A stretch of 64,000 nucleotides of DNA from a virus (IMGVR_UViG_3300021399_000012:8053-72052); one strand, 5' to 3'; numbered from the stretch's first letter, positions 4,005 to 63,612 are shown. A program made the numbers and translations. Notes: generated from the sequence alone by a model not told the origin.

Positions 4005-4033
4005 AGACCTTAGCAAGTCTATAAACTGCTAAA
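4005..4033 (+). repeat. Dispersed pseudoknot-forming repeat copy 1
   Basis: AGACCTTAGCAAGTCTATAAACTGCTAAA. Confidence 0.9.
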
Positions 4034-4040
4034 TTCTTTT

Positions 4041-4066
4041 CGTATTATATTCAACCATGTATATAG
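4041..4066 (+). promoter_or_regulatory. Promoter-like motif copy 2
   Basis: CGTATTATATTCAACCATGTATATAG followed by GAGG RBS. Confidence 0.75.
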
Positions 4067-4079
4067 GAGGTGAAGTAAT

Positions 4080-4214
4080 ATGGTAAAGGCAAGAGAAAAT
4101 CTAAAAGCAAAAATTAGAGCGATGTATAACGCAGGATATAGTACTGGCGAAATAGCCAAGGAATTAAATATTGCAGAATACAAAGTTGTAAGGATGCTTG
4201 GGATATCATATTAA
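4080..4214 (+). CDS. Stand-alone helix-turn-helix protein (44 aa, not in ORF track)
   Basis: KIRAMYNAGYSTGEIAKELNIAEYKVVRML; GGAGG RBS; terminator follows. Confidence 0.7.
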   Translation: MVKARENLKAKIRAMYNAGYSTGEIAKELNIAEYKVVRMLGISY

Positions 4215-4221
4215 TAACTAG

Positions 4222-4252
4222 CTGGGCGGTTATTACAACCGTCTAGTTTTTT
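4222..4252 (+). terminator. Intrinsic terminator
   Basis: CTGGGCGGTT/AACCGTCTAG stem followed by T6. Confidence 0.7.
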
Positions 4253-4272
4253 CTTGGAGGTGGTTTACAAAT

Positions 4273-5466
4273 ATGGCCTTCGAATTATATCCGCATCAAG
4301 AAGCGGCGTTGAGAAAAATGAAAAACGGTTGCATTCTTAATGGCGGAGTTGGTAGTGGTAAGTCAATAACCGCAATAGCTTATTATTTTTTCAAGAACGG
4401 TGGAATCTATGAACATCATCACATGATGCCAATGGTTAAAAAGCAGTTTCTTGTAATCATAACGACTGCTAGAAAAAGAGATACCTTCGAATGGAATAAG
4501 GAGTTGTCACTTTTCGATCTATATGTCGAGAACGGAGACGCTGTTATAGATTCGTGGAATAACATAAAGAAGTATTCTGATATGAAAGATGCATTCTTTA
4601 TATTTGACGAGCAACGAGCTTCTGGATCAGGAGCTTGGGTAAAGGCATTCCTAAAGATCGCGAAATCTAATGAGTGGATACTGTTGTCAGCGACTCCTGG
4701 TGATTCATGGGTTGAATACGCTCCAGTTTTTGTGGCGAATGGTTTCTATAAAAACATAACCGAGTTTAAAAGAGAGCATGTTGTTATGAGTCATTACGGA
4801 GGATATCCAAAAATTGACAGGTATATAAATACTGTTCGATTGAATAAACTCAGGAGATCTATATTGGTTGATATGGATTTCAAGCGTAAGACTAATAGAG
4901 TGCACATAAACGTTTGGGTTCCTTGGGATAATGTAGCTTATAAAAGAGCTATAAAAACCAGGTTTAATGAGGAAACCGGTGAACCATTTAAGAACGCATC
5001 TGCATTATGTTATTATTTAAGAATGATTCTAAATAGTAATCCAGATCGCTTAGTCTTTACGTACGATATTCTTAAAGAAAAGAAGAAGGCTATTATATTC
5101 TACAATTTTGACTACGAGCTGTATATGCTTGAACAAATGCTAGATGAGTACTCTATACCATATGGAGAATGGAATGGACATCAACACAATCCGATTCCAG
5201 ATACTGACACATGGGCGTATTTAGTTCAGTACAATGCTGGCTCAGAAGGCTGGAATTGTACAAGATGCGATACAGTTATATTCTACAGTCAAAATTATTC
5301 ATACAAGATGACAGAACAAGCTTGCGGTAGAATAGACAGACTTAACACACCGTATAATAATTTATATTATTATCATTTGAAGTCTAAGGCCGGAATAGAC
5401 TTGGCAATAGCTAAAGCATTGAAAGATAAAAAGAATTTTAATGAGTCAGCTTGGACTTCGCAATAA
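4273..5466 (+). CDS. Superfamily 2 helicase
   Basis: Walker A GVGSGKS, DEQR, LSATPG, QACGRIDR motif VI. Confidence 0.9.
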   Translation: MAFELYPHQEAALRKMKNGCILNGGVGSGKSITAIAYYFFKNGGIYEHHHMMPMVKKQFLVIITTARKRDTFEWNKELSLFDLYVENGDAVIDSWNNIKKYSDMKDAFFIFDEQRASGSGAWVKAFLKIAKSNEWILLSATPGDSWVEYAPVFVANGFYKNITEFKREHVVMSHYGGYPKIDRYINTVRLNKLRRSILVDMDFKRKTNRVHINVWVPWDNVAYKRAIKTRFNEETGEPFKNASALCYYLRMILNSNPDRLVFTYDILKEKKKAIIFYNFDYELYMLEQMLDEYSIPYGEWNGHQHNPIPDTDTWAYLVQYNAGSEGWNCTRCDTVIFYSQNYSYKMTEQACGRIDRLNTPYNNLYYYHLKSKAGIDLAIAKALKDKKNFNESAWTSQ

Positions 5467-5484
5467 TTTCAACCTCTTATATGA
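5459..5484 (+). promoter_or_regulatory. Promoter-like motif copy 3
   Basis: CGCAATAATTTCAACCTCTTATATGA. Confidence 0.7.
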
Positions 5485-5556
5485 GAGGAAAATAAAAAAT
5501 TATTTGAACTTTTAAAGGTCTAGGGACTAGCTTATATTAGCAGTTTCTGGGCTTTT

Positions 5557-5702
5557 TGTTTTTACGGCTTTAATAGTGATTTATTTGACTAGTAGAATAA
5601 AAGACTCTTACTCCCCCATTTTAAATAATTTATCGAATCCAATAATCAAATAAATATTTTCACATCGCTATCAAATAAGTCACTATTAAAGCCGTAAAAA
5701 CA
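5557..5702. repeat. 32-bp inverted repeat with 82-nt spacer
   Basis: Arms 5557-5588 and 5671-5702; one mismatch, which is G.U-compatible. Confidence 0.9.
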
Positions 5703-5890
5703 TTATATCTTTGGTATTAATAAGGGGTAGCTTAGTTTATTCAAATTTCCTTTCTGTATTTTTATATTTAGTTTGACGTGTACTTGGTTTATTATTTGTG
5801 TTTTACCTCTTTTTGTGATAGTTATTATTTTTGCATATGTCGGCTACCCTTTATTAATACCAAAGATATATTTAATTATATTTTTTTTAT

Positions 5891-5916
5891 CACATATAAC
5901 GATTGGTAAGTTTTTA
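5891..5916 (+). repeat. 26-bp direct repeat copy 1 (second copy at 8972-8997)
   Basis: CACATATAACGATTGGTAAGTTTTTA directly before an RBS. Confidence 0.85.
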
Positions 5917-5929
5917 GGAGGAATGAATT

Positions 5930-7453: not shown

Positions 7454-7455
7454 TT

Positions 7456-7481
7456 CGCAAGGTTTTCAACCATCTATATGG
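7456..7481 (+). promoter_or_regulatory. Promoter-like motif copy 5
   Basis: CGCAAGGTTTTCAACCATCTATATGG. Confidence 0.7.
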
Positions 7482-7515
7482 AATATTAATAAACATATAA
7501 ATGGAGGAAAACATT

Positions 7516-7718: not shown

Positions 7719-7747
7719 AGACCTTAGCAAGTCTTTAAACTGCTAAA
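7719..7747 (+). repeat. Dispersed pseudoknot-forming repeat copy 2
   Basis: AGACCTTAGCAAGTCTTTAAACTGCTAAA. Confidence 0.9.
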
Positions 7748-7754
7748 ACTTTTT

Positions 7755-7780
7755 CGCAATATTTACAGTTTCATATATGG
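7755..7780 (+). promoter_or_regulatory. Promoter-like motif copy 6
   Basis: CGCAATATTTACAGTTTCATATATGG. Confidence 0.75.
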
Positions 7781-7821
7781 AAAAATCAGCATTTTGCAAT
7801 GATGGTAAATTCATTACTACA

Positions 7822-7850
7822 AGACCTTAGCAAGTCTTTAAACTGCTAAA
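7822..7850 (+). repeat. Dispersed pseudoknot-forming repeat copy 3
   Basis: AGACCTTAGCAAGTCTTTAAACTGCTAAA. Confidence 0.9.
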
Positions 7851-7890: not shown

Positions 7891-8574
7891 ATGATTAAAA
7901 TCAACGGAAAGACATTGTCAACATTAACTTGCATTGGTGGTGCTGTATCGCTTGGAGGATTGATCACATACTTATGTGTGGATTCCGCTAAGAAAAGCAA
8001 GGCTGCTAAAGAGGAAAGAGAAAAGAAGTATCAGTATGAAAGAAAGGGTATCCTGGCGACGCTGGATGCTAATCCTATTCCAGAAGATATCGATATCTCC
8101 AACGCTACATTTGCTAATAAGGCATTTACAGGCGAGGAAAAGGCAGCAGCTAGAAAGGTTATCAAATATTATATTGATATCGCTGAGTGCGCAGAGAAGT
8201 CTATCAGGAATTCAAAGGACACAATTGAAATCCAGAATAGATTACTCGACAAGTACCTTGACAATGTAAACCAGGCTAAAAACATTATATCTGATTTCAC
8301 AAATCCTAATTTCTCAGCTGACATCATTAAGAGTGTGCTCGTGTACCAGTCATCTGTTCTTGCAGACATTGCAAAGGCAGCGGAGGAAGCACAAGCCCGT
8401 AAGGACGAGATGGATCGTCTTGATAGAGAGTATCAGATGGAGAAGTTAAGACTTGATAGAGAGGCAGCAGCTGAACAGCAGAAGCTCGAAGCATTAGCAG
8501 TTGCAGCTAAGGCAATGAGCTCCAACGTAAATGTACAGGTTGGAGATGCTAATGTAACTAAGGAGGAATCTTAA
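7891..8574 (+). CDS. Membrane-anchored coiled-coil protein (227 aa)
   Basis: N-terminal hydrophobic helix, charged helical body; GGGAGG RBS. Confidence 0.75.
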   Translation: MIKINGKTLSTLTCIGGAVSLGGLITYLCVDSAKKSKAAKEEREKKYQYERKGILATLDANPIPEDIDISNATFANKAFTGEEKAAARKVIKYYIDIAECAEKSIRNSKDTIEIQNRLLDKYLDNVNQAKNIISDFTNPNFSADIIKSVLVYQSSVLADIAKAAEEAQARKDEMDRLDREYQMEKLRLDREAAAEQQKLEALAVAAKAMSSNVNVQVGDANVTKEES

Positions 8575-21092: not shown

Positions 21093-21374
21093 ATGAATAA
21101 ACCAACATTTGAAAGTTTAATGGATATGAATGCTAAGGAGTTATCAGATCTCAAACGTAAGACCTGGGATGCTGTGGATATTATGAGAAATTATAAGACA
21201 ATGACCGGTGGATCTACAAAGCCATCATTAATTGCTTTCGACTATGTAAACATCATTAAGTCAGGAATTGGTGCTTTCAGTTGTATCGGGGCAGCAACTA
21301 TCGGTTTCTTAGCCGTTAAGTATTACACAGATAAGAAGTACAAGGAGAACGAAAAGGTTGATGATAGGAGATGA
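21093..21374 (+). CDS. Hypothetical membrane protein (93 aa)
   Basis: AAGGAGG RBS; hydrophobic segment. Confidence 0.7.
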   Translation: MNKPTFESLMDMNAKELSDLKRKTWDAVDIMRNYKTMTGGSTKPSLIAFDYVNIIKSGIGAFSCIGAATIGFLAVKYYTDKKYKENEKVDDRR

Positions 21375-22164: not shown

Positions 22165-22189
22165 ATCGTTTTTTCTTCAATTTCTATTA

Positions 22190-22500
22190 TTTTTTTTCTG
22201 ACACTTTTCTGACACTTTTGTATTTTTTGTCATTTTTCTGACACTTTTCTGAAAAATCTGACAGAAATGGGAGTAATTTTAGGGTGTACGGACGGTAAAA
22301 AATGACAAATTTCTGACACTTTTTGCCATTTCTGACACTTTTCTGACACTTTTTTTTCAAAAATGACAAAGCGGAAAGCCTTGCTGGGAGCGGGTTTCAG
22401 CGATTTTCTGACACTTTGTCACTTTTTTCTTTAATTTACTCACGAAAAAAAAAATTAATAATATATAGTAATTTGCCAGAAAAAGTGACAAAATGACAAA
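22190..22500. repeat. Non-coding TCTGACAC/TGACA repeat array (candidate replication origin or operator cluster)
   Basis: TCTGACAC at 22197, 22208, 22237, 22312, 22331, 22342 and 22407, plus several TGACA/TGTCA cores; AT-rich stretch at about 22425-22475. Confidence 0.8.
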
Positions 22501-22531
22501 ACTTGTCCGGGAAGGCCCAAAACTTGCCATT

Positions 22532-22557
22532 CGTTATATTTTCAGCGACATATATGG
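22532..22557 (+). promoter_or_regulatory. Promoter-like motif copy 9
   Basis: CGTTATATTTTCAGCGACATATATGG. Confidence 0.7.
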
Positions 22558-22585
22558 AAAATATGTCTGTAAGGAGGTAAACAGT

Positions 22586-22897: not shown

Positions 22898-22917
22898 TTG
22901 ACTCTCCTTTTCTTTTT

Positions 22918-22943
22918 CGCATTATCTTCAGGTGGATATATAG
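22918..22943 (+). promoter_or_regulatory. Promoter-like motif copy 10 (preceded by hairpin GAGTC-TTAATT-GACTC and a T-run)
   Basis: CGCATTATCTTCAGGTGGATATATAG. Confidence 0.75.
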
Positions 22944-22956
22944 GAGGTGAAGTATT

Positions 22957-24272: not shown

Positions 24273-27200
24273 ATGGAAGAATTCTTTGATGATGATTTTG
24301 AAGAAGATTCAGAAGAATCGTTAATGCATTATGGCACTAAACGACATTCGGGAAGATACAAGTATGGATCTGGTGAGAATCCATATCAGCACGAAGCGTG
24401 GTTTGTGTGGAATTACAACACTATAAAAAAGAATAATTTTGGTATTAGCGATGATGATATCAGAAAAGCCATGGGATACACCGGCAATGGTGGAAAGGCT
24501 AAATTTAATAGAGAAAAAGAAAGAGCATTTGACAATATAAAGGATATTGCAGATGTTATCATGCAGAAAGAAGGTTATACTAGAGATTCAGAAGTTGCGA
24601 GAGCACTTGGTATGAGTTCAGGAGACCTTCGAGCATTAAAAGGTATAGCGAAAGCTAAACAAAATGAGGACCTTATGAGACGTAACTTACAGCTCGTAGA
24701 GCATGGTTACAGTTCTAGAAATAAAAGAGCGGAAATGCTCGGTATTCCAGAATCCACTTTAAGAAATATGGAAAAAGATGGATATATGGAAAGAAATTCT
24801 AAAGCATACAATGTTGCTGAAGAAATGAAGAAGTACATCAAAGATGATAAATCTTATTATGATGTCGGAAAAGGTATTAATTATTCATTGAACGTTTCTG
24901 AACACACGATGCAAGAAGCCCTTACAATTCTGAAGAATCAAGGTTACGGTGTTCATAACATACAGGTTCCTCAGGCCACAAATCCTGATCAGAAGACTAC
25001 GGTTTCCGTATTAGGTCCTCAAGGGGCTTCTTGGGCTGATACGATGAAGAATCAGAATAATATCAGCACTTTTGATATGTATTTTAATGATGATGGAAAA
25101 ACTAGAAGAGGCATCTATGAGCCAAAATCTATAGATTCATCTAGAATTAAGATACATTATGGTGATGAGCAGTTCCAGGGTACTTTAGGTACTGATATGG
25201 ATGGTGTTATACAGCTTCGTAGAGGAGTTGGAGACATATCATTAGGAAAAGCGTCATACGCTCAGGTTCGTATCATGGTTGATGGTACGCATTACTTAAA
25301 AGGTATGGCTATCTATTCTGATAATATGCCTGCTGGAAAAGACATCATCTTTAATACTAATAAGCCTAGTGGAACACCAGCTTCTAAAGTATTCAAAAGC
25401 TTAAAGACAGTCGACATCAAAGATGCGAATGGTAATGTTATCAAAACAGAAATTGATAAAGATAATCCTTTTGGAGCAAATATTAAAGCTGGTGGACAGA
25501 ACTTCTATAAAAATAAAAATGGTGAATATGTCCAGACATCTATTGATAATTTTGAGAAAGCAACAGCATCTAATATTAAGAAAAGTATAGATGGTGAAAG
25601 ATACTCATTATCTGCTGCGAATATTATCAAAGAAGAAGGAGATTGGAATCATTATCAAAAGAAGTTGGCTTCTCAGTTCTTATCTAAGCAGCCTATGGAA
25701 CTCATTAACAAACAGCTGAATTTAACATATGCTGACAAGAATGCTGAATTTGAAGAAATTAAGAGTTTAACAAACCCTACTATCAAAAGAAAACTTCTTG
25801 CAGACTTCGCTGAATCATGTGATAAAGCAGCTGTTGATTTAAAAGTAGCAGCTTTACCAGGACAAACAGCTAAAGTAATATTGCCTGTTACTGATCTTAA
25901 AGAAGGTGAATGCTATTGTCCTACTTATAAAGATGGTACTTATTTGGCATTGGTTAGATATCCACATGCTGGAACTTTCGAAATTCCTATTGTTAAAGTT
26001 AATAATAAGAACAAGCAAGGTCAATCTATAGTTGGTCCAAATGCGCAGGATGCTATCGGAATATCTGCAAAAGATGCAGAACAGCTTTCAGGAGCTGATT
26101 TTGATGGCGATACTGTAGTTTGTCTACCTACAACTAGAAAGCCTACAGCTAATGGTATCTATATTGCTAGTAGAAAGCCATTTGAATCTTTAAAGAACTT
26201 CTCTACAAATGAGTATGCTATCTCTGATGAAAGATTCAAAGCTACTGGAGAGTACATTTTAGGAAAGAATCCTTTAAAGACAGATACTGAGAAAGTAGCT
26301 AATCTTAAGAACAAGATAGCAAACGGTTATAAGCCTACTGAAGCCGACTTTATAGAAGTTGGTAAAGAAAAGCTTGTTATGACTGAAGATGCTAAGCAAA
26401 AGCAAATGGGTGTTGTATCTAACCTTATTACAGATATGACGTTAAAAGGTGCATCTCCAGATGAATTAGCAAGAGCTACAAAGGCTTCAATGGTCGTAAT
26501 CGATGCTGTAAAGCATGAACTTGATTACAAGCAAGCATATGAAGATTGCCGAATTCCTGAGTTAAAGAAGATCTATCAGAAAGAGTACAATGAAGAAACT
26601 GGTGAAACAACTGGTGGTGCTTCTACATTGATATCACGTTCTAAGTCAGAAGTGAGAATCAAAGAAAGAAAAGAAGGCTCTACTGATTACATTGATCCTA
26701 AAACAGGAGAAAAAGGAAAGGCTCGTATGTATTACGATCCGAATACCGGTAAGCGTATCTATACTGAGACTGGTAGAACCTATACCGATAAGAATGGTAA
26801 CGAGGTGGAGGCTCTTCAGAAAGTAACCCGTATGGCCTATGCGGACGATGCCATGGACCTGGTATCCCAAATGGGTACTCAACAGGAAAAGGCATATGCA
26901 AGATATGCAAATGCACTTAAAGAGATGGCTAGAGAAAGTAGAAAAGAACTCTACAAGACCGACCGTGCCGTATACGATAAGGATGCTAAAGAAAAGTATG
27001 CCATCCAGGTAGAAAGACTACAGTCTAAGCTAGAATTAGCAGTTGCTAACTCCCCTAGAGAAAGACAGGCCCAGATAGATGCTAATAAGACTATCAAGGA
27101 GGCCATTCAGAGAGATCCTTCTCTTAAAGATGACAAAGAGCATAATGCTAGACTTAGACAACAAGCCATAGCGGCATCCCGGGATAAGTATGGGGCCAAA

Positions 27201-27473
27201 GGTAAAGATACTAGAATTAAGATAGAAGATGATGAATGGGAAGCTATACAGGCTGGAGCTATATCGGATAGTAAATTAGAGGAGATACTGAAGTATTGCG
27301 ATCTAGATGTTCTTAGAGAACGTGCAATGCCAAAGACTCAAAAGACATTATCCAATGCTCAGGCAGCTAGAATTAAAGCTATGAAGAACTCAGGCTTTAC
27401 AATAGCTGAAATAGCTGAACAAATGTCGTTGTCAACATCAACAGTGTCAAAGTACATTAAAGAAGCTGCTTAA
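24273..27473 (+). CDS. Single-chain two-barrel (DPBB) RNA polymerase, probably virion-associated
   Basis: QVR...YLKG, RYPHAG and LSGADFDGD catalytic motifs; HTH-like segments near the N-terminus and at the C-terminus; acidic leader ending in LMH. Confidence 0.85.
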   Translation: MEEFFDDDFEEDSEESLMHYGTKRHSGRYKYGSGENPYQHEAWFVWNYNTIKKNNFGISDDDIRKAMGYTGNGGKAKFNREKERAFDNIKDIADVIMQKEGYTRDSEVARALGMSSGDLRALKGIAKAKQNEDLMRRNLQLVEHGYSSRNKRAEMLGIPESTLRNMEKDGYMERNSKAYNVAEEMKKYIKDDKSYYDVGKGINYSLNVSEHTMQEALTILKNQGYGVHNIQVPQATNPDQKTTVSVLGPQGASWADTMKNQNNISTFDMYFNDDGKTRRGIYEPKSIDSSRIKIHYGDEQFQGTLGTDMDGVIQLRRGVGDISLGKASYAQVRIMVDGTHYLKGMAIYSDNMPAGKDIIFNTNKPSGTPASKVFKSLKTVDIKDANGNVIKTEIDKDNPFGANIKAGGQNFYKNKNGEYVQTSIDNFEKATASNIKKSIDGERYSLSAANIIKEEGDWNHYQKKLASQFLSKQPMELINKQLNLTYADKNAEFEEIKSLTNPTIKRKLLADFAESCDKAAVDLKVAALPGQTAKVILPVTDLKEGECYCPTYKDGTYLALVRYPHAGTFEIPIVKVNNKNKQGQSIVGPNAQDAIGISAKDAEQLSGADFDGDTVVCLPTTRKPTANGIYIASRKPFESLKNFSTNEYAISDERFKATGEYILGKNPLKTDTEKVANLKNKIANGYKPTEADFIEVGKEKLVMTEDAKQKQMGVVSNLITDMTLKGASPDELARATKASMVVIDAVKHELDYKQAYEDCRIPELKKIYQKEYNEETGETTGGASTLISRSKSEVRIKERKEGSTDYIDPKTGEKGKARMYYDPNTGKRIYTETGRTYTDKNGNEVEALQKVTRMAYADDAMDLVSQMGTQQEKAYARYANALKEMARESRKELYKTDRAVYDKDAKEKYAIQVERLQSKLELAVANSPRERQAQIDANKTIKEAIQRDPSLKDDKEHNARLRQQAIAASRDKYGAKGKDTRIKIEDDEWEAIQAGAISDSKLEEILKYCDLDVLRERAMPKTQKTLSNAQAARIKAMKNSGFTIAEIAEQMSLSTSTVSKYIKEAA

Positions 27474-51047: not shown

Positions 51048-52493
51048 ATGTTTTATGTATTAAGTCCTGATGTTGGATTAAGATATTTTACAGATATTGG
51101 ATATTGTTATATTAGAAAGCATGCTGGAAGAACAAGACCAAGAGGCCTTACTGAAGAAGAATATGAGCTATTAAGTACTGTTTGCGACGGCAGACATCTG
51201 ATAACTGAAGATCAGGAAAGAATCCTGCATAAGTTCGAATTCGACAATGTTATCACAGCATATGATGATATCTTGCCCGTCTTACAGTATAAATGGCAAA
51301 ACATAAAAACAAATAATAGATATGTTTCCGAAATGGAAGTATCTATAACTCAGAGATGTAATTACAATTGTATGTACTGTTTTACTACTGCAGATGCAGC
51401 GCCATTAACAGATTCATTTACACTTGATGAATTTGACGACTTAGTTGGTCAGGCTTTAGACTGTGGATTCAATAGTTTTGCTTTTACTGGTGGAGAACCT
51501 ATGGTTCATAAGAACTTTAGAGAAATGATCCAGGCTGTTTACTCTAGAGGAATGACTGTTTCCGAGATAATGACAAACGGCAGTCTGATAACTGACGAAT
51601 TTATAGATTGGCTTAAAAATATGTACTACTTACCTAGATTCTGTATTTCATTTGACGGAATAAATGGTAAGCATGACATGATTCGTCAGACACACTCTGA
51701 GAATATTGTACTTGATAACATCAGAAAACTGTTGAAAAAAGGTTTTAAGGTTAAAGTTACATATAACCTTAGTAAATTTAATCTGGATGAACTTAGAGAA
51801 ACTACTAAGATTTTAGAAGAAATGGGTGTTGACGAGTTCCGAATTGCTAGAACAATGCCAGCACCAAAATGGCACAGTTTTGCTCCGGGAACAGAAATAG
51901 ATCATGAAGAGTGGATTAAGATTGGACTGGAATATTGTGACTGGTATATGAAAGAAAACATCCAAATGGATCTGGATTTCTGGAACTTAGCAGCTATAAT
52001 TCCCGGCGATAGAACACTTGGACTTAGTAATATTAGAGGCTGTCATTGTAATCGAGATACTGATAAAGATCAGCCTTTGTGTCCACTGACTGTTGAGAGA
52101 ATATGCGTTATGGGAAATGGTGGTATGACACCTTGTCAGCAGGTAAGTGGTATTCTCAAATATGAAGGTATTGATCTTGGAAATGTTAAAGAGACACCAC
52201 TTAGTGAATTGCTAGTAAATAGTGAATTCTCAAAAGTTATATATTCTACAGTTGAAAGTAGAAAAGATCATCTAGAAGAATGCAAGAATTGTAAATATTG
52301 GGAATGGTGTCTTGGTGGATGTCCTATTATATGTTGGAACTGGAGACACGATAAAGGAGATAAATTCCCATATTATCTAGATGAGACGAAATGCGCGTTC
52401 TTTAAGAATGGGTATTATGAAAAGTTTAAAGAGATAGCTGATAATAACAATTATATTTTACATGGAGGTGATCTCTATGCAACTATCGGATGA
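51048..52493 (+). CDS. Radical SAM/SPASM-domain protein with N-terminal RRE-like extension (481 aa)
   Basis: CNYNCMYC, FTGGEP, SFDG; SPASM C...G-X4-C and CKNCKYWEWCLGGC (CX2CX5CX3C). Confidence 0.92.
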   Translation: MFYVLSPDVGLRYFTDIGYCYIRKHAGRTRPRGLTEEEYELLSTVCDGRHLITEDQERILHKFEFDNVITAYDDILPVLQYKWQNIKTNNRYVSEMEVSITQRCNYNCMYCFTTADAAPLTDSFTLDEFDDLVGQALDCGFNSFAFTGGEPMVHKNFREMIQAVYSRGMTVSEIMTNGSLITDEFIDWLKNMYYLPRFCISFDGINGKHDMIRQTHSENIVLDNIRKLLKKGFKVKVTYNLSKFNLDELRETTKILEEMGVDEFRIARTMPAPKWHSFAPGTEIDHEEWIKIGLEYCDWYMKENIQMDLDFWNLAAIIPGDRTLGLSNIRGCHCNRDTDKDQPLCPLTVERICVMGNGGMTPCQQVSGILKYEGIDLGNVKETPLSELLVNSEFSKVIYSTVESRKDHLEECKNCKYWEWCLGGCPIICWNWRHDKGDKFPYYLDETKCAFFKNGYYEKFKEIADNNNYILHGGDLYATIG

Positions 52494-55400
52494 AATAATC
52501 AATGCGTTTGTTAAGACTTTGCCTAATGGCGAAAAAGACAATAGTAATGGTTATGAATTATATTATGGAACAGTTAAGGTTTCTAATGGTAAAACTAGTG
52601 TTATATTAGATGGATCGCCTGTTGAGACACCATTGAATTATTTAACAATGGGTGCTGAAAATGGTGATAGAGTTACTTGTATTATAAAAGATCATTCTTT
52701 GATAGTTACAGGTAATTTAACTCATCCATCTGAGGGAATGACTACTAAGTACATCGAGACTATGACTGTTTTAGCGCAGGAAGCAGCTATAGGAAAACTT
52801 ATAGCTACTGAGGGTGACTTTACAGAGCTTACAGCTGATTCAGCTTTTGTAAAAAGGTTAATGTCTGATCAAGTAGGTGCGTCTATTTTAACAGCAGATG
52901 AAGCATTCGTTGGCTCGCTGCAGACACAAATAGTAACAGCAGATAAGATTAAAGCTATGCAGGCTGAAATCGGTTACGTTGATGCAGAGACTCTAGAGGC
53001 TAATTATATTGATGCAGAGACGATAAAAGCTAACTATGTCGATACCAAGACATTACATGCTAATTATATTGATGCTGAGACATTAAAAGCTAACTATGTT
53101 GATACAGAGACATTAAAAGCTAATTATGTTAATATAAAGACATTAGAGGCTAATTATATTGATGCTAATACAATAAAAGCTAATTATGTCGATACAAAGA
53201 CGTTAAAGTCTGATTATATTGATGCTAAGACGATAGCAGCTAACTATGTTGATACAGAGACACTAGAGGCTAATTATATTGACGCTAAGACAATAGCAGC
53301 TAACTATGTTGATACAGAGACGTTAGAGGCTGATTATATCGATGCAGAGACGATAAAGGCTAATTATATGGATGCGGCGACAATAAAAGCCGGCTATTTA
53401 CAAGCTGACATGGCAAATTTAAAAATAGTAGAAGCTACAAAAGCATCTATCGCTACTTTATTAGCTAATATAGCGTTGGTCAAAAATGCAACAATTAGTC
53501 AAGGGCATATAACTGGAGCATTGGACTCTGTTACATTAAATGCTAATTATATTACAGCTGGTAGTTTGAGTGTTGATAGATTATATATCAACGGATCTGA
53601 TGGAAAACCAAGACTTGTTAAATTTGACTCAAGTGGAAAACCAGTAGCTACTACTATTGACGCATCTATTTTAACTGATAGAACGGTTACCGCTGATAAG
53701 ATCGTAGCTAACAGTATTACGGCTAACGAGATAAGCACTGACTTTATTACAGCGTTTAGAGCGGATATTATGCAGACAGTAACTGAGCATCTAGAAGCAA
53801 TTGATGCTGAGATTCAGAATCTTATATCTGGTGATACTACTATAACATCGTTGACAGTAAAGTCGAATGCATCAATCGGTGGTAAATTAACAGTAACTGG
53901 GTCTACGATTCTTAAAGGATCTGTAACCATGAATTCAACTTTAAACGTTGACGGAGCCCTTACAGCAAAGTCTCTCAAATTGGCAACTCCGTTACCAGAA
54001 ACATCTGGCGGTACTGGGGTTAATAACTTTAATAATCTGTTTAAAATATTTAGAGATCGCGACTATAGGTTGAACTATACTCGTACCAATCTAATAAATC
54101 CAACCGCACAGACACAGACAAAAAATGGTGTTACACTCACTAATAATGGGGATGGCACTTATACAGTTAATGGTACAGCTAGTGAGTGGACTTTTTTTAA
54201 CTTAAATTATGTTAACTCTAGTACATTGACCATACCCGTAGGAACATATAAGTTGACAGGAACACCAACTCCCAATGGCCAAAAAGTCCGAACTCAAGTA
54301 GTGACACCGGATAAAGTAATCGGTACTAATCAAAATGACTACGATGGAACTATATTTACAGTCCAACAAGGTACTGCCGCCACCTGGGTTAGGATTGCCA
54401 TCGACAAAGGTTATACAGCTAACAACCTCTTGTTCAAGCCAATGATAACAACAGACCTTAATGCAACATATGGTGATTTTGTACAGTATTCCGGACCTGG
54501 TGAATTAAATGAGAATGTAGCGGAGATTTATAAGGTTTCTGATAGAGTTTCAGATGAAACTCATACCAATCTAATAAATCCAACTGCACAGACACAGACG
54601 GTCAATGGTGTTAAATTCACTAATAATGGAGATGGCACTTATACTGTTAATGGTACGGCTAGTGCAGAAGCGCTTATCGTACAACCTAAATATTTAGACT
54701 TAACGCCACTTCGTAACAAAGACATAAAAATTGTGGGGTGCCCTTCAGGTGGAGGAGCAAGTAAGTATCAATTTAATATTAATATTTATGATGGCTCAGG
54801 CACAAACATTGGTTCTACGGTAGATTTCGGAGAAGGAAAAACACGCCATGTACCAAGTAATGCCCATAAATGTAATATCGTAATGGTTGTCCGAAACGGT
54901 TATACAGCCAATAACCTCCTCTTCAAACCAATGATAACAACAGACCTAAACGCAACATATGACGATTTTGTACAGTATTCAGGAGATGGCGAGTTAAATG
55001 AGAATGTACAGAAGATATATCGTAAACAGAGATATGTGTTTATAACGACCAACGAAATATCTGCCACATACAACCCTATGACGATTGCGGAAGAAATGTT
55101 AGCAAAAAGAGGTAACGAAGTTGGTCCAGAACTAATGTATGTGGGTGTAAGTGATACACGTGGTTATGAACAATATGCTCCTGCTTCATATACTACATAT
55201 GAAATTCGTAGAAGTACCGATACTGTAACAATAAATACTATAAGTTATAGCAATAACTTTTATTATACTAACGGTAGGTCAGCTGCTGGTAATTGGAAAA
55301 GTTGGAAAATAATGAGACCGACTGATGCTAAGCTAGATTCATCGTCTGAAAATCCAATAGCTAACAAGGCAGTTACAAACGAGTTTAGTAATATTACTAA

Positions 55401-55989
55401 AAGAACAGATTTCAAACAGGGACTATTAGATCTTGTATATCCGGTAGGTAGTATATACACATCTACAAAAAATGTTTCACCTGCAACTTTCTTAGGAGGA
55501 ACTTGGACTAGAATAAAGGACACATTCCTATTAGCAGCTGGCGATACATATGCGGCGGGTACAACCGGAGGTTCTAGTACTCATACATTAACAGTTGACG
55601 AAATCCCATCGCATGCACATGGATTAAATAATCATGTTCATAGTATGAATGGGCATACACATGGTATACCAGCATTAAGTGGAACGGCACATAGTGAAGG
55701 TGGACATACTCACGGAACGTCTGGTAAATATAGATTAGGCGGTGTCGATGTTGGTAACATGGGTGTTGGCGCTGGTAATAGTTACACACTATCTAATCCA
55801 TTCTTATCAAGTATTGGCGGTGGTGCACATACCCATTCAGTAACCACAGACGCAGGTACAACAGATGGGAATTCGACAGCATTTACTGGAGGGCCTATAA
55901 GCGGAGACACAACGAATACTGGTGGAGGAAAAGCCCATAGTATTATGCCACCATATAAAGTTGTATATGTATGGGAAAGAACTGCTTAG
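52477..55989 (+). CDS. Tail fibre/receptor-binding protein (about 1170 aa)
   Basis: Repeat shaft, duplicated beta-rich modules, gp53-like C-terminal tip (YPVGSIY...GGTW...H.HG...MPPYKVVYVWERTA). Confidence 0.85.
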   Translation: MQLSDEIINAFVKTLPNGEKDNSNGYELYYGTVKVSNGKTSVILDGSPVETPLNYLTMGAENGDRVTCIIKDHSLIVTGNLTHPSEGMTTKYIETMTVLAQEAAIGKLIATEGDFTELTADSAFVKRLMSDQVGASILTADEAFVGSLQTQIVTADKIKAMQAEIGYVDAETLEANYIDAETIKANYVDTKTLHANYIDAETLKANYVDTETLKANYVNIKTLEANYIDANTIKANYVDTKTLKSDYIDAKTIAANYVDTETLEANYIDAKTIAANYVDTETLEADYIDAETIKANYMDAATIKAGYLQADMANLKIVEATKASIATLLANIALVKNATISQGHITGALDSVTLNANYITAGSLSVDRLYINGSDGKPRLVKFDSSGKPVATTIDASILTDRTVTADKIVANSITANEISTDFITAFRADIMQTVTEHLEAIDAEIQNLISGDTTITSLTVKSNASIGGKLTVTGSTILKGSVTMNSTLNVDGALTAKSLKLATPLPETSGGTGVNNFNNLFKIFRDRDYRLNYTRTNLINPTAQTQTKNGVTLTNNGDGTYTVNGTASEWTFFNLNYVNSSTLTIPVGTYKLTGTPTPNGQKVRTQVVTPDKVIGTNQNDYDGTIFTVQQGTAATWVRIAIDKGYTANNLLFKPMITTDLNATYGDFVQYSGPGELNENVAEIYKVSDRVSDETHTNLINPTAQTQTVNGVKFTNNGDGTYTVNGTASAEALIVQPKYLDLTPLRNKDIKIVGCPSGGGASKYQFNINIYDGSGTNIGSTVDFGEGKTRHVPSNAHKCNIVMVVRNGYTANNLLFKPMITTDLNATYDDFVQYSGDGELNENVQKIYRKQRYVFITTNEISATYNPMTIAEEMLAKRGNEVGPELMYVGVSDTRGYEQYAPASYTTYEIRRSTDTVTINTISYSNNFYYTNGRSAAGNWKSWKIMRPTDAKLDSSSENPIANKAVTNEFSNITKRTDFKQGLLDLVYPVGSIYTSTKNVSPATFLGGTWTRIKDTFLLAAGDTYAAGTTGGSSTHTLTVDEIPSHAHGLNNHVHSMNGHTHGIPALSGTAHSEGGHTHGTSGKYRLGGVDVGNMGVGAGNSYTLSNPFLSSIGGGAHTHSVTTDAGTTDGNSTAFTGGPISGDTTNTGGGKAHSIMPPYKVVYVWERTA
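52978..53397 (+). repeat. 14 x 30-bp tandem repeat encoding [VI]D[AT]xT[LI]xANY decapeptides
   Basis: Read directly in the DNA and protein. Confidence 0.95.
54085..55008 (+). repeat. Internal duplication of a about 160-aa tail fibre module
   Basis: TNLINPTAQTQT..NG...TNNGDGTYTVNGTAS at 54085 and 54565; GYTANNLLFKPMITTDLNATY at 54409 and 54898. Confidence 0.9.
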
Positions 55990-57211: not shown

Positions 57212-58285
57212 ATGTCATCTTATGTAATTAATAAAGACTATCCAGCTAAGCCTATTTCTTATGATGGAACTAGACCAGCACAGAACATTAAGTGGATAGT
57301 TATTCATGGTACAGGTAATACCACTGATAAAGATATTAATAACGCTAAGTACTTTAGTGCTTCAGGCGGAAATACTAGATATGCTGGTGCACATTATTTT
57401 GTAGATGATGCTGATAATGTAATCTATCAGTCAATCGACGATCTTAAGAACGCTAATGCTGTTGGTGGTGGACGTGTTTCTAATGCATATGGAGCAGCAT
57501 CTAAATTTAGATTATGCACTAACTACAACTCTATATCGATCGAGATGTGTTCTGTTAATGGAGAGTATCAGGAAAAGACAATAGAGTTGGCACTAGAACT
57601 TACAAGAGACTTAATGTTTAAATATGGAATCGACATCGATCATGTAATTAGACATTGGGATGTTACTGGTAAGAAGTGTCCAGGCTGGAATGGATGGACT
57701 GGAGTTGATCAGAGTAAATGGCATGCTTTCAAGTACAGATTAGCTGATCTTGTCGCAGCTACATGGAAGGCACTCGCTGAGCTCAATGAGCAGAACCAGA
57801 AGAACCAGCCTGCACCTGCAGAAAAGAAGACTGAATGTGCACAGGCTCCAGCCAATGAGAAGGCTAATGTTACATATCAGGTTAAAATTAAGTCTGGAAA
57901 ACTATATGGTACTGTAGTGGATGATACGGACTATGCTGGATGGGATAATGTTCTTTTATCAGACTTAGCAGTTAAACCATCTAAGGGTAAAATCATGTAC
58001 AGAGTCCATGTTATGAAAGAGAAAATCAACGGTAAAACATACCCAGCTAAATGGCTTGGATGGATTGATACTTTCAATTGGAATGACTCTAACCATGGTT
58101 ATGCTGGTATTGATGGAAGAACAATCGATGCTATACAGGCAAAGGGTGAAGGACTTGGTGGTTCTTTAATGTATAGAGTATCTACTACAGGAACACCTGG
58201 CTATCTTCCAACTGTAAAAGAAGATAGTGATTATGCTGGTATATTTGGTAAACCAGTGGATAAGATTCAATTTTGGGTAGAGTAG
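57212..58285 (+). CDS. Endolysin, N-acetylmuramoyl-L-alanine amidase (Amidase_2) with C-terminal binding domain
   Basis: IVIHGT, AHYFVD, SISIEMC, VIRHWDVTGKKCPG. Confidence 0.92.
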   Translation: MSSYVINKDYPAKPISYDGTRPAQNIKWIVIHGTGNTTDKDINNAKYFSASGGNTRYAGAHYFVDDADNVIYQSIDDLKNANAVGGGRVSNAYGAASKFRLCTNYNSISIEMCSVNGEYQEKTIELALELTRDLMFKYGIDIDHVIRHWDVTGKKCPGWNGWTGVDQSKWHAFKYRLADLVAATWKALAELNEQNQKNQPAPAEKKTECAQAPANEKANVTYQVKIKSGKLYGTVVDDTDYAGWDNVLLSDLAVKPSKGKIMYRVHVMKEKINGKTYPAKWLGWIDTFNWNDSNHGYAGIDGRTIDAIQAKGEGLGGSLMYRVSTTGTPGYLPTVKEDSDYAGIFGKPVDKIQFWVE

Positions 58286-58291: not shown

Positions 58292-58320
58292 TGTCCTTAG
58301 CAAGACATTAAAAGGCTATA
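58292..58320 (+). repeat. Covariant eighth copy of the dispersed pseudoknot element
   Basis: TGTC-CTTAGCAA-GACA-TTAAAA-GGCTATA. Confidence 0.75.
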
Positions 58321-61449: not shown

Positions 61450-61480
61450 TAGTCGAAATAATATCAGCTAAACAAATTTA

Positions 61481-61510: not shown

Positions 61511-61612
61511 ATTGTTTAGTGCTATAATTTCAACTCCTATTTACTTTTTCGCAATATTTACAATGTATATTATGAGAAACTAGGTAACTAGAAATATAGG
61601 AGGAATTATATT

Positions 61613-61723
61613 ATGATTAAATTAGTGATGGTTCTTATATTGTGTGTAGCAGCATACCAGGTAGCATGGTATGACGAAAACAAAACAAGAAAGGAACTAG
61701 AAGCAAAAGGGGTCGAATATTAA
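61613..61723 (+). CDS. Small membrane peptide (36 aa, not in ORF track)
   Basis: AGGAGG RBS; MIKLVMVLILCVAAYQVAW... Confidence 0.6.
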   Translation: MIKLVMVLILCVAAYQVAWYDENKTRKELEAKGVEY

Positions 61724-61784
61724 TCGGCCTCCTATTTTTTTTTTTCGTATTATATTCTGGCTATTATATAGGAGGTGATACATT

Positions 61785-61931
61785 ATGAAAATGGAAAAGC
61801 TATTATTTATTATGGTATTTGTATTAACCATATTAAGCTTATTAGCAGGATATTGGAGTATAAAGATCGTATGGTGCTGGGTGGCACTTATAGCGGGAAT
61901 TATATTTGATAAATGCACTCCAAAAGATTGA
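61785..61931 (+). CDS. Small two-helix membrane protein (48 aa, not in ORF track)
   Basis: AGGAGGTG RBS; hydrophobic. Confidence 0.65.
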   Translation: MKMEKLLFIMVFVLTILSLLAGYWSIKIVWCWVALIAGIIFDKCTPKD

Positions 61932-61961
61932 GTCTGATTAATTTCAGACCCTTTCTTTTTT
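61930..61961 (+). terminator. Intrinsic terminator, near-duplicated at 62303-62334
   Basis: GTCTGA/TCAGAC stem with T-run; 31 of 32 nt identical between copies. Confidence 0.75.
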
Positions 61962-62033
61962 CGCAATTTTTACAGACTTCTATATGAGGAAATAAGCAGT
62001 AATGCTTAAAGGATTCACATAATTACTGGTTCA

Positions 62034-62062
62034 AGACCTTAGCAAGTCTATAAACTGCTAAA
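62034..62062 (+). repeat. Dispersed pseudoknot-forming repeat copy 5
   Basis: AGACCTTAGCAAGTCTATAAACTGCTAAA. Confidence 0.9.
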
Positions 62063-62107
62063 ACTTTTTCGTAATTTATTCAGGTAGATATATAGGAGGT
62101 GAAAACA

Positions 62108-62314
62108 ATGACCAAATTAGAATATGAAGTTAAACTAAACGATATTAAAAATAAAATAGAGGAGGCTGAAAAGAATGAAAATTGGATGCTCGCTAGATTA
62201 TTAATATACGAGTATAATAGGTGGCTTTATATTGCAGAGTTGGACATTGCTAGACAAGAAGCAGAAAAAGAATTTGAAAGATACAAACGAAAGGTACGGA
62301 AAGAGTCTGATTGA
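62108..62314 (+). CDS. Small helical protein (68 aa)
   Basis: AGGAGGTG RBS. Confidence 0.7.
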   Translation: MTKLEYEVKLNDIKNKIEEAEKNENWMLARLLIYEYNRWLYIAELDIARQEAEKEFERYKRKVRKESD

Positions 62315-62378
62315 TTTCAGACCCTTTCTTTTTTTTTTTTCGTAATTTATTCAGGTAGATATATAGGAGGTGAATGAT

Positions 62379-62642
62379 ATGAGTAAAACAATTTTTCATA
62401 CATGCGACATTTTTAATATTACGGATCAAAAAATAAAAATGGAATATTTTGATTTCTGTTATACAAAGGCTTTGGAATGTGGGCTTACTTGTACATGTAA
62501 GGACATTGGAAGCACACCAAAGCTCAAATTGGAAGGAACTAAATGGGAATTTGTAAAATACTATTTTTTGACGTTGACAAAATGTGACTGTAAATGGAAA
62601 GGTATTAAACGATTATTATCATTCGTATTGGAGCGGTCCTAA
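62379..62642 (+). CDS. Hypothetical protein (87 aa)
   Basis: AGGAGGTG RBS; hairpin and T-run follow. Confidence 0.7.
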   Translation: MSKTIFHTCDIFNITDQKIKMEYFDFCYTKALECGLTCTCKDIGSTPKLKLEGTKWEFVKYYFLTLTKCDCKWKGIKRLLSFVLERS

Positions 62643-62735
62643 CAAGGACTGTTCTTTTTTTTCGCAATTTTTGCAATGTATATTATGAGAAATAAACATT
62701 ATAGTTTAAACGAAAGGATTAAAAAGGTGATAACT

Positions 62736-62927
62736 ATGAAAAATTCAAAAGAGACAGGATTAAGTCTTATAATAACAAACATGTATGACTTATGCAGATT
62801 TCTTAGTAAAGAAAGTCTTGTATGGGAACATCATGATATTGTGGATTATGAGATTGTTCCGCTTAAAGGAATTTCTGGTGAACCAATTGTAAGAATTGAC
62901 TTTACTTATAATGATTTTGACGACTAA
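62736..62927 (+). CDS. Hypothetical protein (63 aa)
   Basis: AAGGTGA RBS. Confidence 0.6.
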   Translation: MKNSKETGLSLIITNMYDLCRFLSKESLVWEHHDIVDYEIVPLKGISGEPIVRIDFTYNDFDD

Positions 62928-62933
62928 AACAAA

Positions 62934-62962
62934 AGACCTTAGCAAGTCTATAAACTGCTAAA
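62934..62962 (+). repeat. Dispersed pseudoknot-forming repeat copy 6
   Basis: AGACCTTAGCAAGTCTATAAACTGCTAAA. Confidence 0.9.
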
Positions 62963-63045
62963 ACTTTTCGCAATTTTTACAAACTCCTATATGAGATAAA
63001 CAATCATATGTTAAATCCGCTTTATGCGGTAGAAGGAGTATTATT

Positions 63046-63282
63046 ATGAAGAAATTTATTTTAGGTGTAATGTGTACTATAATCGCATTAGGAGCAGTTG
63101 TGGCCTTAAACACAACATTGGAAACTGAGAAAGTTGTTCGATACGGACAGCATTGGGAAGGTGACCAACTTGTAGAAAACAGTTATGCAGATAATGCAAC
63201 ACTCAAAGTTAAGAGTGTTAGTGTTGGAGCATACACAGTTGAGATACATGATGGTGACTTAACATTCAATGTTGGACGATAG
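63046..63282 (+). CDS. Secreted or membrane-anchored protein (78 aa)
   Basis: MKKFILG signal-like N-terminus; AAGGAG RBS. Confidence 0.7.
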   Translation: MKKFILGVMCTIIALGAVVALNTTLETEKVVRYGQHWEGDQLVENSYADNATLKVKSVSVGAYTVEIHDGDLTFNVGR

Positions 63283-63382
63283 AACACAAGGTTGGGTGAG
63301 CCTTTAATTCACCCTTTCTTTTTTTTCGCATTATATTCAGGTTTATATATGGAAATAAGAAAGCATTAAGGAGGTAAATATT

Positions 63383-63577
63383 ATGCAGAGTATTATGTTA
63401 ATTATTGGAGGATTAGTATTAGCAGCAATTATTGTTATAATGACTAAGGGTATTTCTATCGATGAAGATACGAAATGGACCAAAGAAAAAGTAGCAATTA
63501 TAGTAGCTGTACTAATGGTCTTTACAGTAGTAGCAACAATGATGGTACAAACTGGATTAATGTATTTAATAGGTTAA
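63383..63577 (+). CDS. Small two-helix membrane protein (64 aa)
   Basis: AAGGAGG RBS; hydrophobic. Confidence 0.7.
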   Translation: MQSIMLIIGGLVLAAIIVIMTKGISIDEDTKWTKEKVAIIVAVLMVFTVVATMMVQTGLMYLIG

Positions 63578-63583
63578 TTTCCA

Positions 63584-63612
63584 AGACCTTAGCAAGTCTT
63601 TAAACTGCTAAA
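63584..63612 (+). repeat. Dispersed pseudoknot-forming repeat copy 7
   Basis: AGACCTTAGCAAGTCTTTAAACTGCTAAA. Confidence 0.9.

Follow-up and report, generated by a model that had tools for sequence, protein, structure and literature searches.

What is the role of a short sequence that a virus keeps almost unchanged between many of its early genes? This question is raised by the rumen phage IMGVR_UViG_3300021399_000012, of which we analyzed a stretch of 64,000 nucleotides (bases 8053-72052 of the 72,052-bp IMG/VR phage record), called here the window. An element of 29 nucleotides (the 29-mer) recurs in this stretch. An earlier note had reported seven copies, had proposed that their RNA folds as an H-type pseudoknot, and had suggested that they act as decoys against a toxin of the host. 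We confirmed the observation, and comparison with other viruses supports the fold. The anti-defence function is not supported; the role in transcript punctuation that we propose instead is one that we infer. Positions below are those of the window, unless they are marked as positions of the genome.

Copies of the 29-mer in the phage genome

The pattern AGACCTTAGCAAGTCTWTAAACTGCTAAA gave seven exact matches in the window, on the + strand only, and none in 100 dinucleotide shuffles. This search returned the coordinates, the strand, the intergenic position and the T-run of all seven copies as they had been reported, and the description of the interleaved stems AGAC/GTCT and TTAGCA/TGCTAA holds as well. 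The termini of the phage record share a 127-bp overlap, which indicates a circular assembly, and the whole 72,052-bp genome contains nine copies in the forward orientation and none in reverse: the seven of the window and two others at genome positions 992 and 1559, the latter with a single G>A change in the 3′ arm of stem 2. A tenth, diverged copy (Table 1) was retrieved by a covariance model (30 bits, E about 1e-4), an approach that had been recommended along with the original observation. All copies lie between open reading frames (ORFs). The nine main ones are confined to one contiguous early/replication region of ~22 kb (genome 70086 across the ends to 20388), where they are dispersed as single units, the nearest two being 103 nt apart from start to start. 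Downstream of each of these nine, a run of four to six T follows after a spacer of 1-3 nt.

W at position 17 is the sole variable base among the window copies. The 29-mer is thus invariant, yet the adjoining promoter-like sequence is ~25% different between copies. A second sample holds the same phage (L013-L015), with identical copies. Contigs of four other gut runs represent relatives that are 5-10% diverged, in which, among the variants listed, only the W position is touched inside a copy. Breaks of these contigs tend to fall at copies of the element, and assemblies in general tend to break at repeats.

Fold of the RNA

Our data support the description of the 29-mer as a compact H-type pseudoknot. 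In this predicted fold, stem 1 has 4 bp, loop 1 (L1) is a single base (C), stem 2 has 6 bp, the junction is one base (A), and loop 3 (L3) is the A-rich 6-nt sequence WUAAAC. The arms are interleaved in the order S1a-S2a-S1b-S2b that defines the H type, with the 1-nt L1 spanning the 6-bp stem 2 and the 6-nt L3 spanning the 4-bp stem 1. The only structure returned by nested folding is the hairpin UUAGCA-A-GU/AC-UGCUAA (-5.6 kcal/mol, z about -2), and the separate energies of the two helices are -2.4 kcal/mol for stem 1 and -4.2 kcal/mol for stem 2. With the usual pseudoknot penalties, we estimate that pseudoknot and hairpin are about equal in energy. Energy therefore cannot decide between them, and comparison has to.

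Our final alignment covers more than 12 lineages with 22 sequences; matches with an unpaired stem 1 had been set aside as chance. Pairing of stem 1 is 100% in this alignment, and all four of its pairs show double changes (the first pair occurs as AU, UA, UG and CG). A lack of stem 1 covariation in homologues, which the earlier note had named as evidence against its proposal, is thus not what we observed. Stem 2 is 94.7% paired, a value to be read with the knowledge that several members were retrieved by patterns that fixed most of this stem, and that one pattern permitted only transitions at two of its pairs, which favours pairing; double changes occur at three of its six pairs, with U.G and G.U intermediates. 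No shuffle or slid register comes near the observed pairing. Unbiased evidence of covariation is given by the stem 1 variants, by the diverged tenth copy and by the stem 2 swaps found with BLAST (phiCT19406B, Lj771 and Staphylococcus phage 37). The inference of an H-type pseudoknot is supported by covariation of both stems in homologues from other viruses. Also, even very distant viruses share the loop bases C11 and U24-A25-A26-A27-C28 without change. As G.U states occur and one of the carriers is an RNA virus, the conserved fold is that of the + strand RNA.

The same alignment allows us to weigh the simplest alternative, in which the 29-mer would be an ordinary small hairpin terminator, UUAGCA-A-GU/AC-UGCUAA with a U-run, and the complementarity of stem 1 would be incidental. 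Nested folding does return this hairpin as the minimum free energy (MFE) structure, and a U-run does follow it. However, stem 1 covaries at all four pairs, whereas no covariation is seen at the two pairs that only the hairpin has (columns 19-28 and 20-27), and changes in the 3′ arm of stem 1 always disrupt them. Moreover, the ordinary terminators of this genome differ in sequence from one another, whereas the 29-mer is invariant. We consider a plain hairpin quite improbable.

Homologues in other viruses

Searches with degenerate patterns in the code of the International Union of Pure and Applied Chemistry (IUPAC) and with BLAST revealed the shared motif N4-C-UUAGCA-A-N4'-WUAAAC-UGCUAA in more than 12 unrelated phage lineages and in one noda-like RNA virus. 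The near-exact 24-mer had no match in IMG/VR. An IUPAC scan of the same database with stem 1 left free yielded seven loci, in all of which stem 1 is paired (ACAC/GUGU, UGAC/GUCA and UGUG/CACA). JGI metagenomes yielded 15 loci, 14 of them with stem 1 paired, and GTDB genomes only two matches, the number expected by chance, both with stem 1 unpaired. When the two central pairs of stem 2 were freed, members with UUAGUA/UACUAA, UUAGUA/UGCUAA, UUAAUA/UGUUAA and UUAGCA/UGUUAA were obtained, and stem 1 occurred as CGAC/GUCG, UGAC/GUCG and UGUC/GACG. The BLAST queries, of 37-43 nt, imposed no pairing. They located the motif in the Clostridium tetani phage phiCT19406B (stem 2 UAAGCA/UGCUUA), in the Lactobacillus prophage Lj771 (UGAGUA/UGCUC), in the Anoxybacillus phage A403 and in about 77 Staphylococcus phages. 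The carriers include the S. aureus phages 80, phiETA and phiNM4, and viruses of marine hosts as well.

In Lj771, A403 and the Staphylococcus phages 37, 80 and B236, the motif is situated between the gene for a minor head protein and the scaffold gene, that is, in the late head operon; in another carrier (L166) the gene after the motif encodes a DUF4355 scaffold. Other carriers have one or two copies, mostly a single one, and most of the other lineages have no U-run after the motif. The element is absent from relatives of the phage at about 60% helicase identity (L016, L017), so that its amplification in this phage is recent.

The RNA virus (L019) is a 5.5-kb noda-like contig with a Vmethyltransferase replicase and an S-domain coat protein. 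Its motif (3196-3223; stem 1 UGUG/CACA) lies 7 nt past the replicase stop and 90 nt upstream of the coat ORF, with a CGUGC...GCACG hairpin behind it. A search of IMG/VR gave no relatives of this contig, and its intergenic region had no match in Rfam. In a marine group (L020:6270-6400 and about 12 metagenome contigs), the motif lies inside a near-identical block of more than 100 nt that includes a downstream GGGCUA-GUGA-UAGCCC hairpin, and may there be part of a larger RNA.

The records of phages B236 (L173, record 21303-21341) and phiJB label the motif site as a promoter predicted by BPROM (P5R). This annotation is probably wrong, since the spacing between the hexamers is only about 12 nt. For the 29-mer itself, we rejected a sigma-70 promoter, as it has no acceptable -35/-10 spacing.

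We also looked for a protein that would accompany the motif. A tblastn search of all ORFs of the phage against the other carriers gave only a DUF3310 protein common to the marine group, all-against-all clustering of ORFs from 13 lineages gave nothing common beyond close kin, and a 32-kb carrier (G001) has no two-barrel RNA polymerase; as the loci are fragments, such a missing partner is weak evidence. A near-identity search of 10 kb of the window and of two carriers (L107, L165) against named phages had no match, and a literature search for the sequence of the element returned unrelated primers only. Nothing usable came from searches for transcript maps of the late operons of staphylococcal phages.

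Comparison with known RNA families

At the gathering score, Rfam 15 had no match in the window or in seven carrier loci. Under relaxed conditions (E<=10, stretches of 2.5 kb and of 71 nt), the best match of the window copies was SAM-II long-loop, with 14 bits against a cut-off of 44, and no preQ1 family was seen. The best relative emerged from a homologue: the copy of Lj771 scores 20.5 bits against GP20-b (RF03003), of which the cut-off is 36.2, while the window copies had no match to RF03003 even at E<=10.

The original description of GP20-b is that of Weinberg et al. (2017, NAR gkx699). GP20-a and GP20-b precede Phage_GP20 genes as candidate cis-regulatory RNAs of unknown function (PMC10690425). 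In the Lj771 alignment, the first hairpin of the GP20-b model (ccgca/ugcgg) falls on stem 2, its unpaired 5′ gGuC and its loop GgCg fall on the arms of stem 1, and its loop UAAAAg falls on L3. Like GP20-b, the homologues of Lj771, A403 and the Staphylococcus phages 37, 80 and B236 stand just upstream of a Phage_GP20 scaffold gene, and kinship of the motif with GP20-b is consistent with this position. In the homologues of Lj771, 37, 80 and B236 the scaffold gene comes next and a second hairpin precedes the ribosome-binding site (RBS), as in the GP20-b context. By contrast, the copies of the rumen phage precede assorted early genes, have no second hairpin and are not beside the scaffold gene; the element consists of the 5′ domain alone, is AU-rich, occurs in ten copies and has a U-tract after it. 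A further difference is that the consensus structure (CS) line of the family, as given by cmscan, shows no pseudoknot. On these comparisons, the most fitting description of the 29-mer is an AU-rich form of the 5′ pseudoknot domain of GP20-b-like RNAs that stands alone and falls below the threshold of the family. Comparison shows that it acts as RNA and is a phage-borne motif related to the 5′ domain of GP20-b. Its use in ten copies, in register with stop codons and in terminator positions, is unusual for a GP20-b-like phage cis-RNA.

Small pseudoknots of other kinds resemble the 29-mer in part. The preQ1-I and SAM-II/SAM-V aptamers share with it a length of ~30 nt, an A-rich 3′ loop, a second stem of the UAG...CUA type and invariant loop bases. 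Also as in preQ1-I and SAM-II, either a U-tract or a helix that sequesters the Shine-Dalgarno (SD) sequence would serve as expression platform, according to the lineage. However, neither family is reached at threshold, the one-base L1 is too short for the SAM-II triplex, and there are no genes for queuosine or S-adenosylmethionine nearby: we found no queuosine-pathway genes near the copies, only a weak radical-SAM match at 13515-14048. The T4 gene 32 leader and the luteovirus frameshift pseudoknots are compact (about 28-30 nt) and have a one-base L1. The 29-mer is similar to them in size and in L1, and its spacing of ~6 nt from the decoding site is like that of recoding stimulators, but a slippery site and a conserved extension are both missing. 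We rejected recoding at the upstream stop by read-through or frameshift, as only about four codons would be gained before the in-frame UAG of the loop.

The comparison that had been favoured in the earlier note was with ToxI. In that proposal, the copies are ToxI-like decoy RNAs that neutralise a type III toxin of the host. The 29-mer does have the stem and loop lengths of the first 21 nt of ToxI, its copies lie in the early region, and phage-borne H-type pseudoknots related to these antitoxins exist in phage phiTE (pseudo-ToxI). CptI of the gut Firmicute Eubacterium rectale likewise has a one-base L1 and an A-rich long loop (PMC5086642). The Pectobacterium ToxI prefix given in the earlier note is real (AGGTGATTTGCTACCTTTAAG is a primer in PMC5772629), and its lengths of 4 bp, 8 nt and 4 bp coincide with ours, but they do not define the family: such a 4/8/4 match is a property of many small pseudoknots. 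In type III antitoxins, repeats of 34-45 nt are arrayed in tandem ahead of a terminator and the toxin gene, the RNAs are processed by the toxin and specific to it, and the escape locus of phiTE is itself a tandem expansion of pseudo-ToxI (PMC5086642, PMC3475682), whereas the copies studied here are dispersed single units. Rfam gave no ToxI-like or other antitoxin family even at E<=10. A ToxN-family gene is missing from the whole phage genome (PF13958, no match at E<=1), in agreement with what had been stated for the window, although a decoy would not strictly need such a gene. Finally, type III antitoxins are toxin-specific, whereas conservation of the motif extends over phages of Staphylococcus, Lactobacillus, Clostridium and Anoxybacillus, viruses of marine hosts and an RNA virus, a range that speaks against mimicry of the antitoxin of one host; in the Firmicutes phages it is moreover in a late operon. 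The decoy hypothesis is therefore not borne out, and we regard it as extremely improbable.

Stop codons, promoters and terminators around the copies

Eight copies have an upstream ORF. The gap from its stop codon to stem 1 is 6 nt in six of them, and 5 and 10 nt in the remaining two. The six 6-nt spacers are unrelated in sequence. For comparison, ordinary terminators of the same genome start anywhere between a position overlapping the stop codon and 11 nt past it.

A promoter-like motif, TTCGCA-N15-TATAT(A/G)G, has ~20 occurrences, on the + strand only, in the non-structural regions and just upstream of RBSs, and is absent from the structural block. From its sequence, it is taken to be the promoter of the phage. 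A similar motif is present in relatives with about 60% helicase identity (TTCGCAAAAATTACA..TATAGTGAGA in L016). TATAT often directly abuts the SD, so that transcripts would begin at or just before GGAGG, and the geometry of the motif is nearer to T7-type than to sigma-70 promoters.

Most of the promoter-like motifs that have no 29-mer are preceded by a GC-rich hairpin with a C/U-rich tract, that is, by an ordinary terminator. In six of the nine main copies, it is the 29-mer with its T-run that fills this place before the promoter. Promoter motifs without an upstream hairpin also have no T-run, and the T-run is thus part of the hairpin or pseudoknot unit. Behind the three other copies (7822, 12308 and genome 1559), an RBS comes next and there is no promoter motif. 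It had been pointed out correctly that genes after copies 3 and 4 (7822 and 12308) lack a promoter motif of their own; our motif scan found none for 4 kb after the first and none for 10 kb after the second, and polymerase must therefore read through both. All nine main copies are located 14-50 nt upstream of an SD.

Copy 4 stands at the 3′ end of a segment that varies between strains. In contigs of two other gut runs (X3 and X4, joint 12075>12337), positions 12076-12336 are replaced by 24 nt with a plain AGACC-AUAA-GGUCU hairpin. As the promoter-like motif, the small ORF and the 29-mer are missing in relatives as a unit, the 29-mer is the 3′ boundary of a moron-like cassette, in the way that a moron is bounded by a terminator.

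This cassette could also be read at the level of DNA, with the copies serving as recombination arms for cassette exchange, or as an operator for a protein that binds double-stranded DNA. One cassette that ends exactly at a copy is indeed present or absent between strains, identical 29-mers in direct orientation populate a plastic early region, and the half-sites TTAGCA/TGCTAA are palindromic. However, to judge from the G.U states and the RNA-virus carrier, what is conserved is a fold of RNA. With the single copy that most other phages have, recombination arms would be of no use, and half-sites 17 bp apart from centre to centre do not suit a dimeric operator well. We see recombination at the copies rather as a by-product, and judge a DNA-level role highly improbable.

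A possible terminator-like role in this phage

The explanation that we favour, although tentatively, is that in this phage the pseudoknot with its U5 tract is a leaky or conditional terminator, or a former of 3′ ends. It is suggested by three features: the 29-mer with its T-run takes the terminator place before promoters in six of nine copies, a promoter-ORF-29-mer unit is present or absent between strains like a moron with its terminator boundary, and the gap of 6 nt to the stop codon is kept in most copies with an upstream ORF. Also, copies that remain identical while the neighbouring promoter sequence is ~25% different would be under selection, which speaks for the same explanation. With intrinsic terminators the 29-mer shares its location at the 3′ end of short transcription units, the U-tract, a promoter directly after, a plastic early region and the border of an indel cassette; the T4 PeSL cassettes are comparable terminator-promoter junctions of phage early regions. 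The earlier note had mentioned pseudoknot terminators or 3′ stabilisers among its alternatives, a suggestion that fits the anatomy in this phage, while the function itself is inferred.

We propose the following mechanism. The ten copies, fixed mostly 6 nt past stop codons and with a U-tract behind stem 2, would substitute for hairpin terminators ahead of phage promoters. Pseudoknot and U-tract would punctuate the transcripts: stem 2 would take the role of the terminator helix, and stem 1 and the A-rich loop would brace it. After copies 3 and 4, the long downstream operons would be expressed only upon read-through by the polymerase. The identity of the copies and their fixed 6-nt spacing suggest that a conserved partner modulates folding; candidates, on a speculative view, are the terminating ribosome, RNA polymerase and a cofactor. 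When a stop codon occupies the A site, the footprint of the ribosome extends about 12-13 nt downstream. The 5′ arm of stem 1 would then just be covered by its leading edge while stem 2 stays free, and this reach, taken with the 6-nt gap, suggests that the fold may be tuned to the terminating ribosome.

Several observations weigh against this explanation. Stem 2, the putative terminator helix, is only a weak pseudoknot stem (-4.2 kcal/mol as a hairpin and -5.6 kcal/mol in the best nested fold, versus -7.8 to -15.3 kcal/mol for ordinary terminators of this phage). It is separated from the U5 by a spacer of 2-3 nt, which is a poor geometry for an intrinsic terminator, and a consensus terminator scan does not call the 29-mer. 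Unlike such terminators, the copies have an invariant sequence and a fixed distance from the stop codon. Expression of the 4-10 kb of genes after copies 3 and 4 depends on read-through. Most of the other lineages have no U-run, so that termination cannot be the core function of the motif, and in staphylococcal phages the U-run is an anti-SD strand. No run with RNA was listed for this phage, and metatranscriptomes of the source sample (two runs) contained next to none of its words.

The pseudoknot might also block an exoribonuclease without any termination, either 3′-5′ on the upstream message or, in the manner of RNase J, 5′-3′ on the downstream one. Its position at gene boundaries, directly between a stop codon and strongly expressed genes (for scaffold and capsid in Firmicutes phages, for the coat in the RNA virus), would suit such a stability element, as would the compact, triplex-capable fold and the occurrence in an RNA virus, where bacterial termination is irrelevant. 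But the U-tract and the fixed 6-nt spacing would be left unexplained, and we hold this role to be rather improbable.

Staphylococcal scaffold leaders and a possible switch

In other lineages, the motif may work in another way. The pseudoknot could be the sensor domain of a riboswitch-like translational switch, the 3′ strand and U-run of which can instead pair with the SD and start of the next gene; when the pseudoknot is stabilised by a ligand, a protein, the ribosome or folding kinetics, the RBS would be freed. The T-run would then be an anti-SD strand and not a terminator tract. In the Staphylococcus phages 80 and 37 and in the S. epidermidis phage vB_SepS_48, L3, the 3′ arm of stem 2 and the U-run can form 16-19 bp with the SD/start region of the scaffold gene, with MFEs of -26.1, -25.4 and -27.8 kcal/mol (z = -3.56, and 0/200 shuffles as good, in the two tested). 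The U-run and the A-run with which it pairs are coupled in length: U5/A5 is shortened to U4/A4 in vB_SepS_48. The anti-SD helix excludes stem 2 but not stem 1, which is a riboswitch-like layout, and one copy of another carrier (copy a of L024) follows the same pairing logic (z = -2.5). The invariant loop bases, kept in very distant viruses as they would be in a ligand pocket, the architecture that recalls preQ1-I and SAM-II-type aptamers, together with the weak SAM-II long-loop match, and the SD close behind all nine main copies point in the same direction. From its sequence, the motif in the staphylococcal late head operon looks like a translational switch of the scaffold gene, and a switch may well be the primary role of the motif in other lineages.

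In the rumen phage itself, by contrast, the alternative pairing amounts to only 6-7 weak, U.G-rich pairs, with z about 0 against shuffles. In six of nine copies a promoter intervenes between element and SD, so that the gene's own transcript would not contain the element. There are no ligand-related genes near the copies, and no preQ1 or SAM family at threshold. Because the pairing is no better than in shuffles and because of the intervening promoters, we rank the switch second in this phage, as a possibility that is on the unlikely side, behind the conditional terminator.

A more far-reaching idea would unite these observations: the ~29-nt pseudoknot would be a very small, new riboswitch-like sensor class in many phages and at least one RNA virus, in which a conserved factor or the terminating ribosome sets either read-through versus termination or an open versus a sequestered RBS, and the ten copies would form a genome-wide device for early timing. 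We think this unlikely. Nevertheless, if the element does sense something, it would be among the smallest switches known, and if pseudoknot and U-tract do terminate or attenuate transcription, they would represent an unusual form of intrinsic terminator.

The comparison gives a covariation-backed fold to a motif that was so far only an uncharacterised Rfam candidate (GP20-b) and a mis-annotated staphylococcal "promoter", and takes away a tempting but unsupported anti-defence reading. The same pseudoknot is found across very distant viruses in what seem to be two uses, before a U-tract in terminator positions versus with an anti-SD helix ahead of scaffold genes. As Staphylococcus, Lactobacillus and Clostridium carriers can be grown in the laboratory, the mechanism is directly testable.

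Features of the window and of the phage

The phage is siphovirus-like, with all genes on the + strand, among them a family A-type DNA polymerase, a helicase and a terminase-portal-protease/capsid-tail block. The features discussed are collected in Table 1.

Table 1. Coordinates of the pseudoknot copies and of associated features; positions are those of the window unless a contig is named.
Feature	Position	Strand	Remarks
Pseudoknot copy 1	4005-4033	+	10 nt past stop of 40-aa ORF; then UUCUUUU and promoter-like motif 4039-4070
Pseudoknot copy 2	7719-7747	+	5 nt past stop of 70-aa hydrophobic ORF; then AAC-U5 and promoter-like motif 7753-7784
Pseudoknot copy 3	7822-7850	+	In leader between promoter-like motif 7753 and gene 7891-8574; then U6 and RBS; no promoter motif after
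Pseudoknot copy 4	12308-12336	+	6 nt past stop; then AAC-U5 and directly RBS of gene 12358-13056; 3′ end of indel cassette 12076-12336
Pseudoknot copy 5	62034-62062	+	Then AAC-U5 and promoter-like motif 62068-62099
Pseudoknot copy 6	62934-62962	+	6 nt past stop of 83-aa ORF; then promoter-like motif 62967-62998
Pseudoknot copy 7	63584-63612	+	6 nt past stop of 64-aa hydrophobic ORF; then promoter-like motif 63617-63648
Diverged tenth copy	58292-58320	+	Stem 1 TGTC/GACA, stem 2 only UAGC/GCUA, L3 UUAAAAG; 6 nt past stop of 357-aa gene 57212-58285; no clean U-run
Promoter-like motif TTCGCA-N15-TATAT(A/G)G	4039-4070, 5457-5488, 7454-7485, 7753-7784, 12077-12108, 22530-22561, 22916-22947, several in 61744-63975	+	
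GC-richer ordinary hairpin with C/U-rich tract, for comparison	61930-61961	+	Same slot before promoter-like motif; second copy 62303-62334
Moron-like cassette	12076-12336	+	Promoter-like motif 12077, small ORF ~12133-12301, pseudoknot copy 4; indel between strains
Two-barrel (YonO/crAss-like) RNA polymerase	24273-27473	+	1066 aa; C-terminal sigma-70 region 4-like helix-turn-helix (HTH)
Scaffold-leader alternative pairing	L174:1196-1295, L172:1460-1592, L175		Staphylococcus phages 80, 37 and vB_SepS_48

The two-barrel RNA polymerase is the likely reader of the TTCGCA-N15-TATAT motifs. Its closest named relatives are only ~40% identical (Faecalibacterium phage FP_oengus, and phages of Streptomyces, Arthrobacter, Gordonia and Lactococcus) and are often annotated as "RNA-dependent RNA polymerase" or "HTH protein"; the likeness to sigma-70 region 4 lies in the C-terminal 40 residues. 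Upstream of the RNA polymerase region, a gene-free gap (22176-22368) contains short direct repeats (TTTTCTGACAC and variants). Similar clusters of TCTGTCA/TTTGCCCAC repeats are found in the relatives L016 (10592-10760) and L017 (20552-20745). These clusters are iteron-like and may mark a replication origin. Also, the 1175-aa tail fibre gene (52462-55989) includes at least 13 tandem 30-nt repeats that encode a decapeptide (52884-53450), with further internal duplications at 54079-55020.

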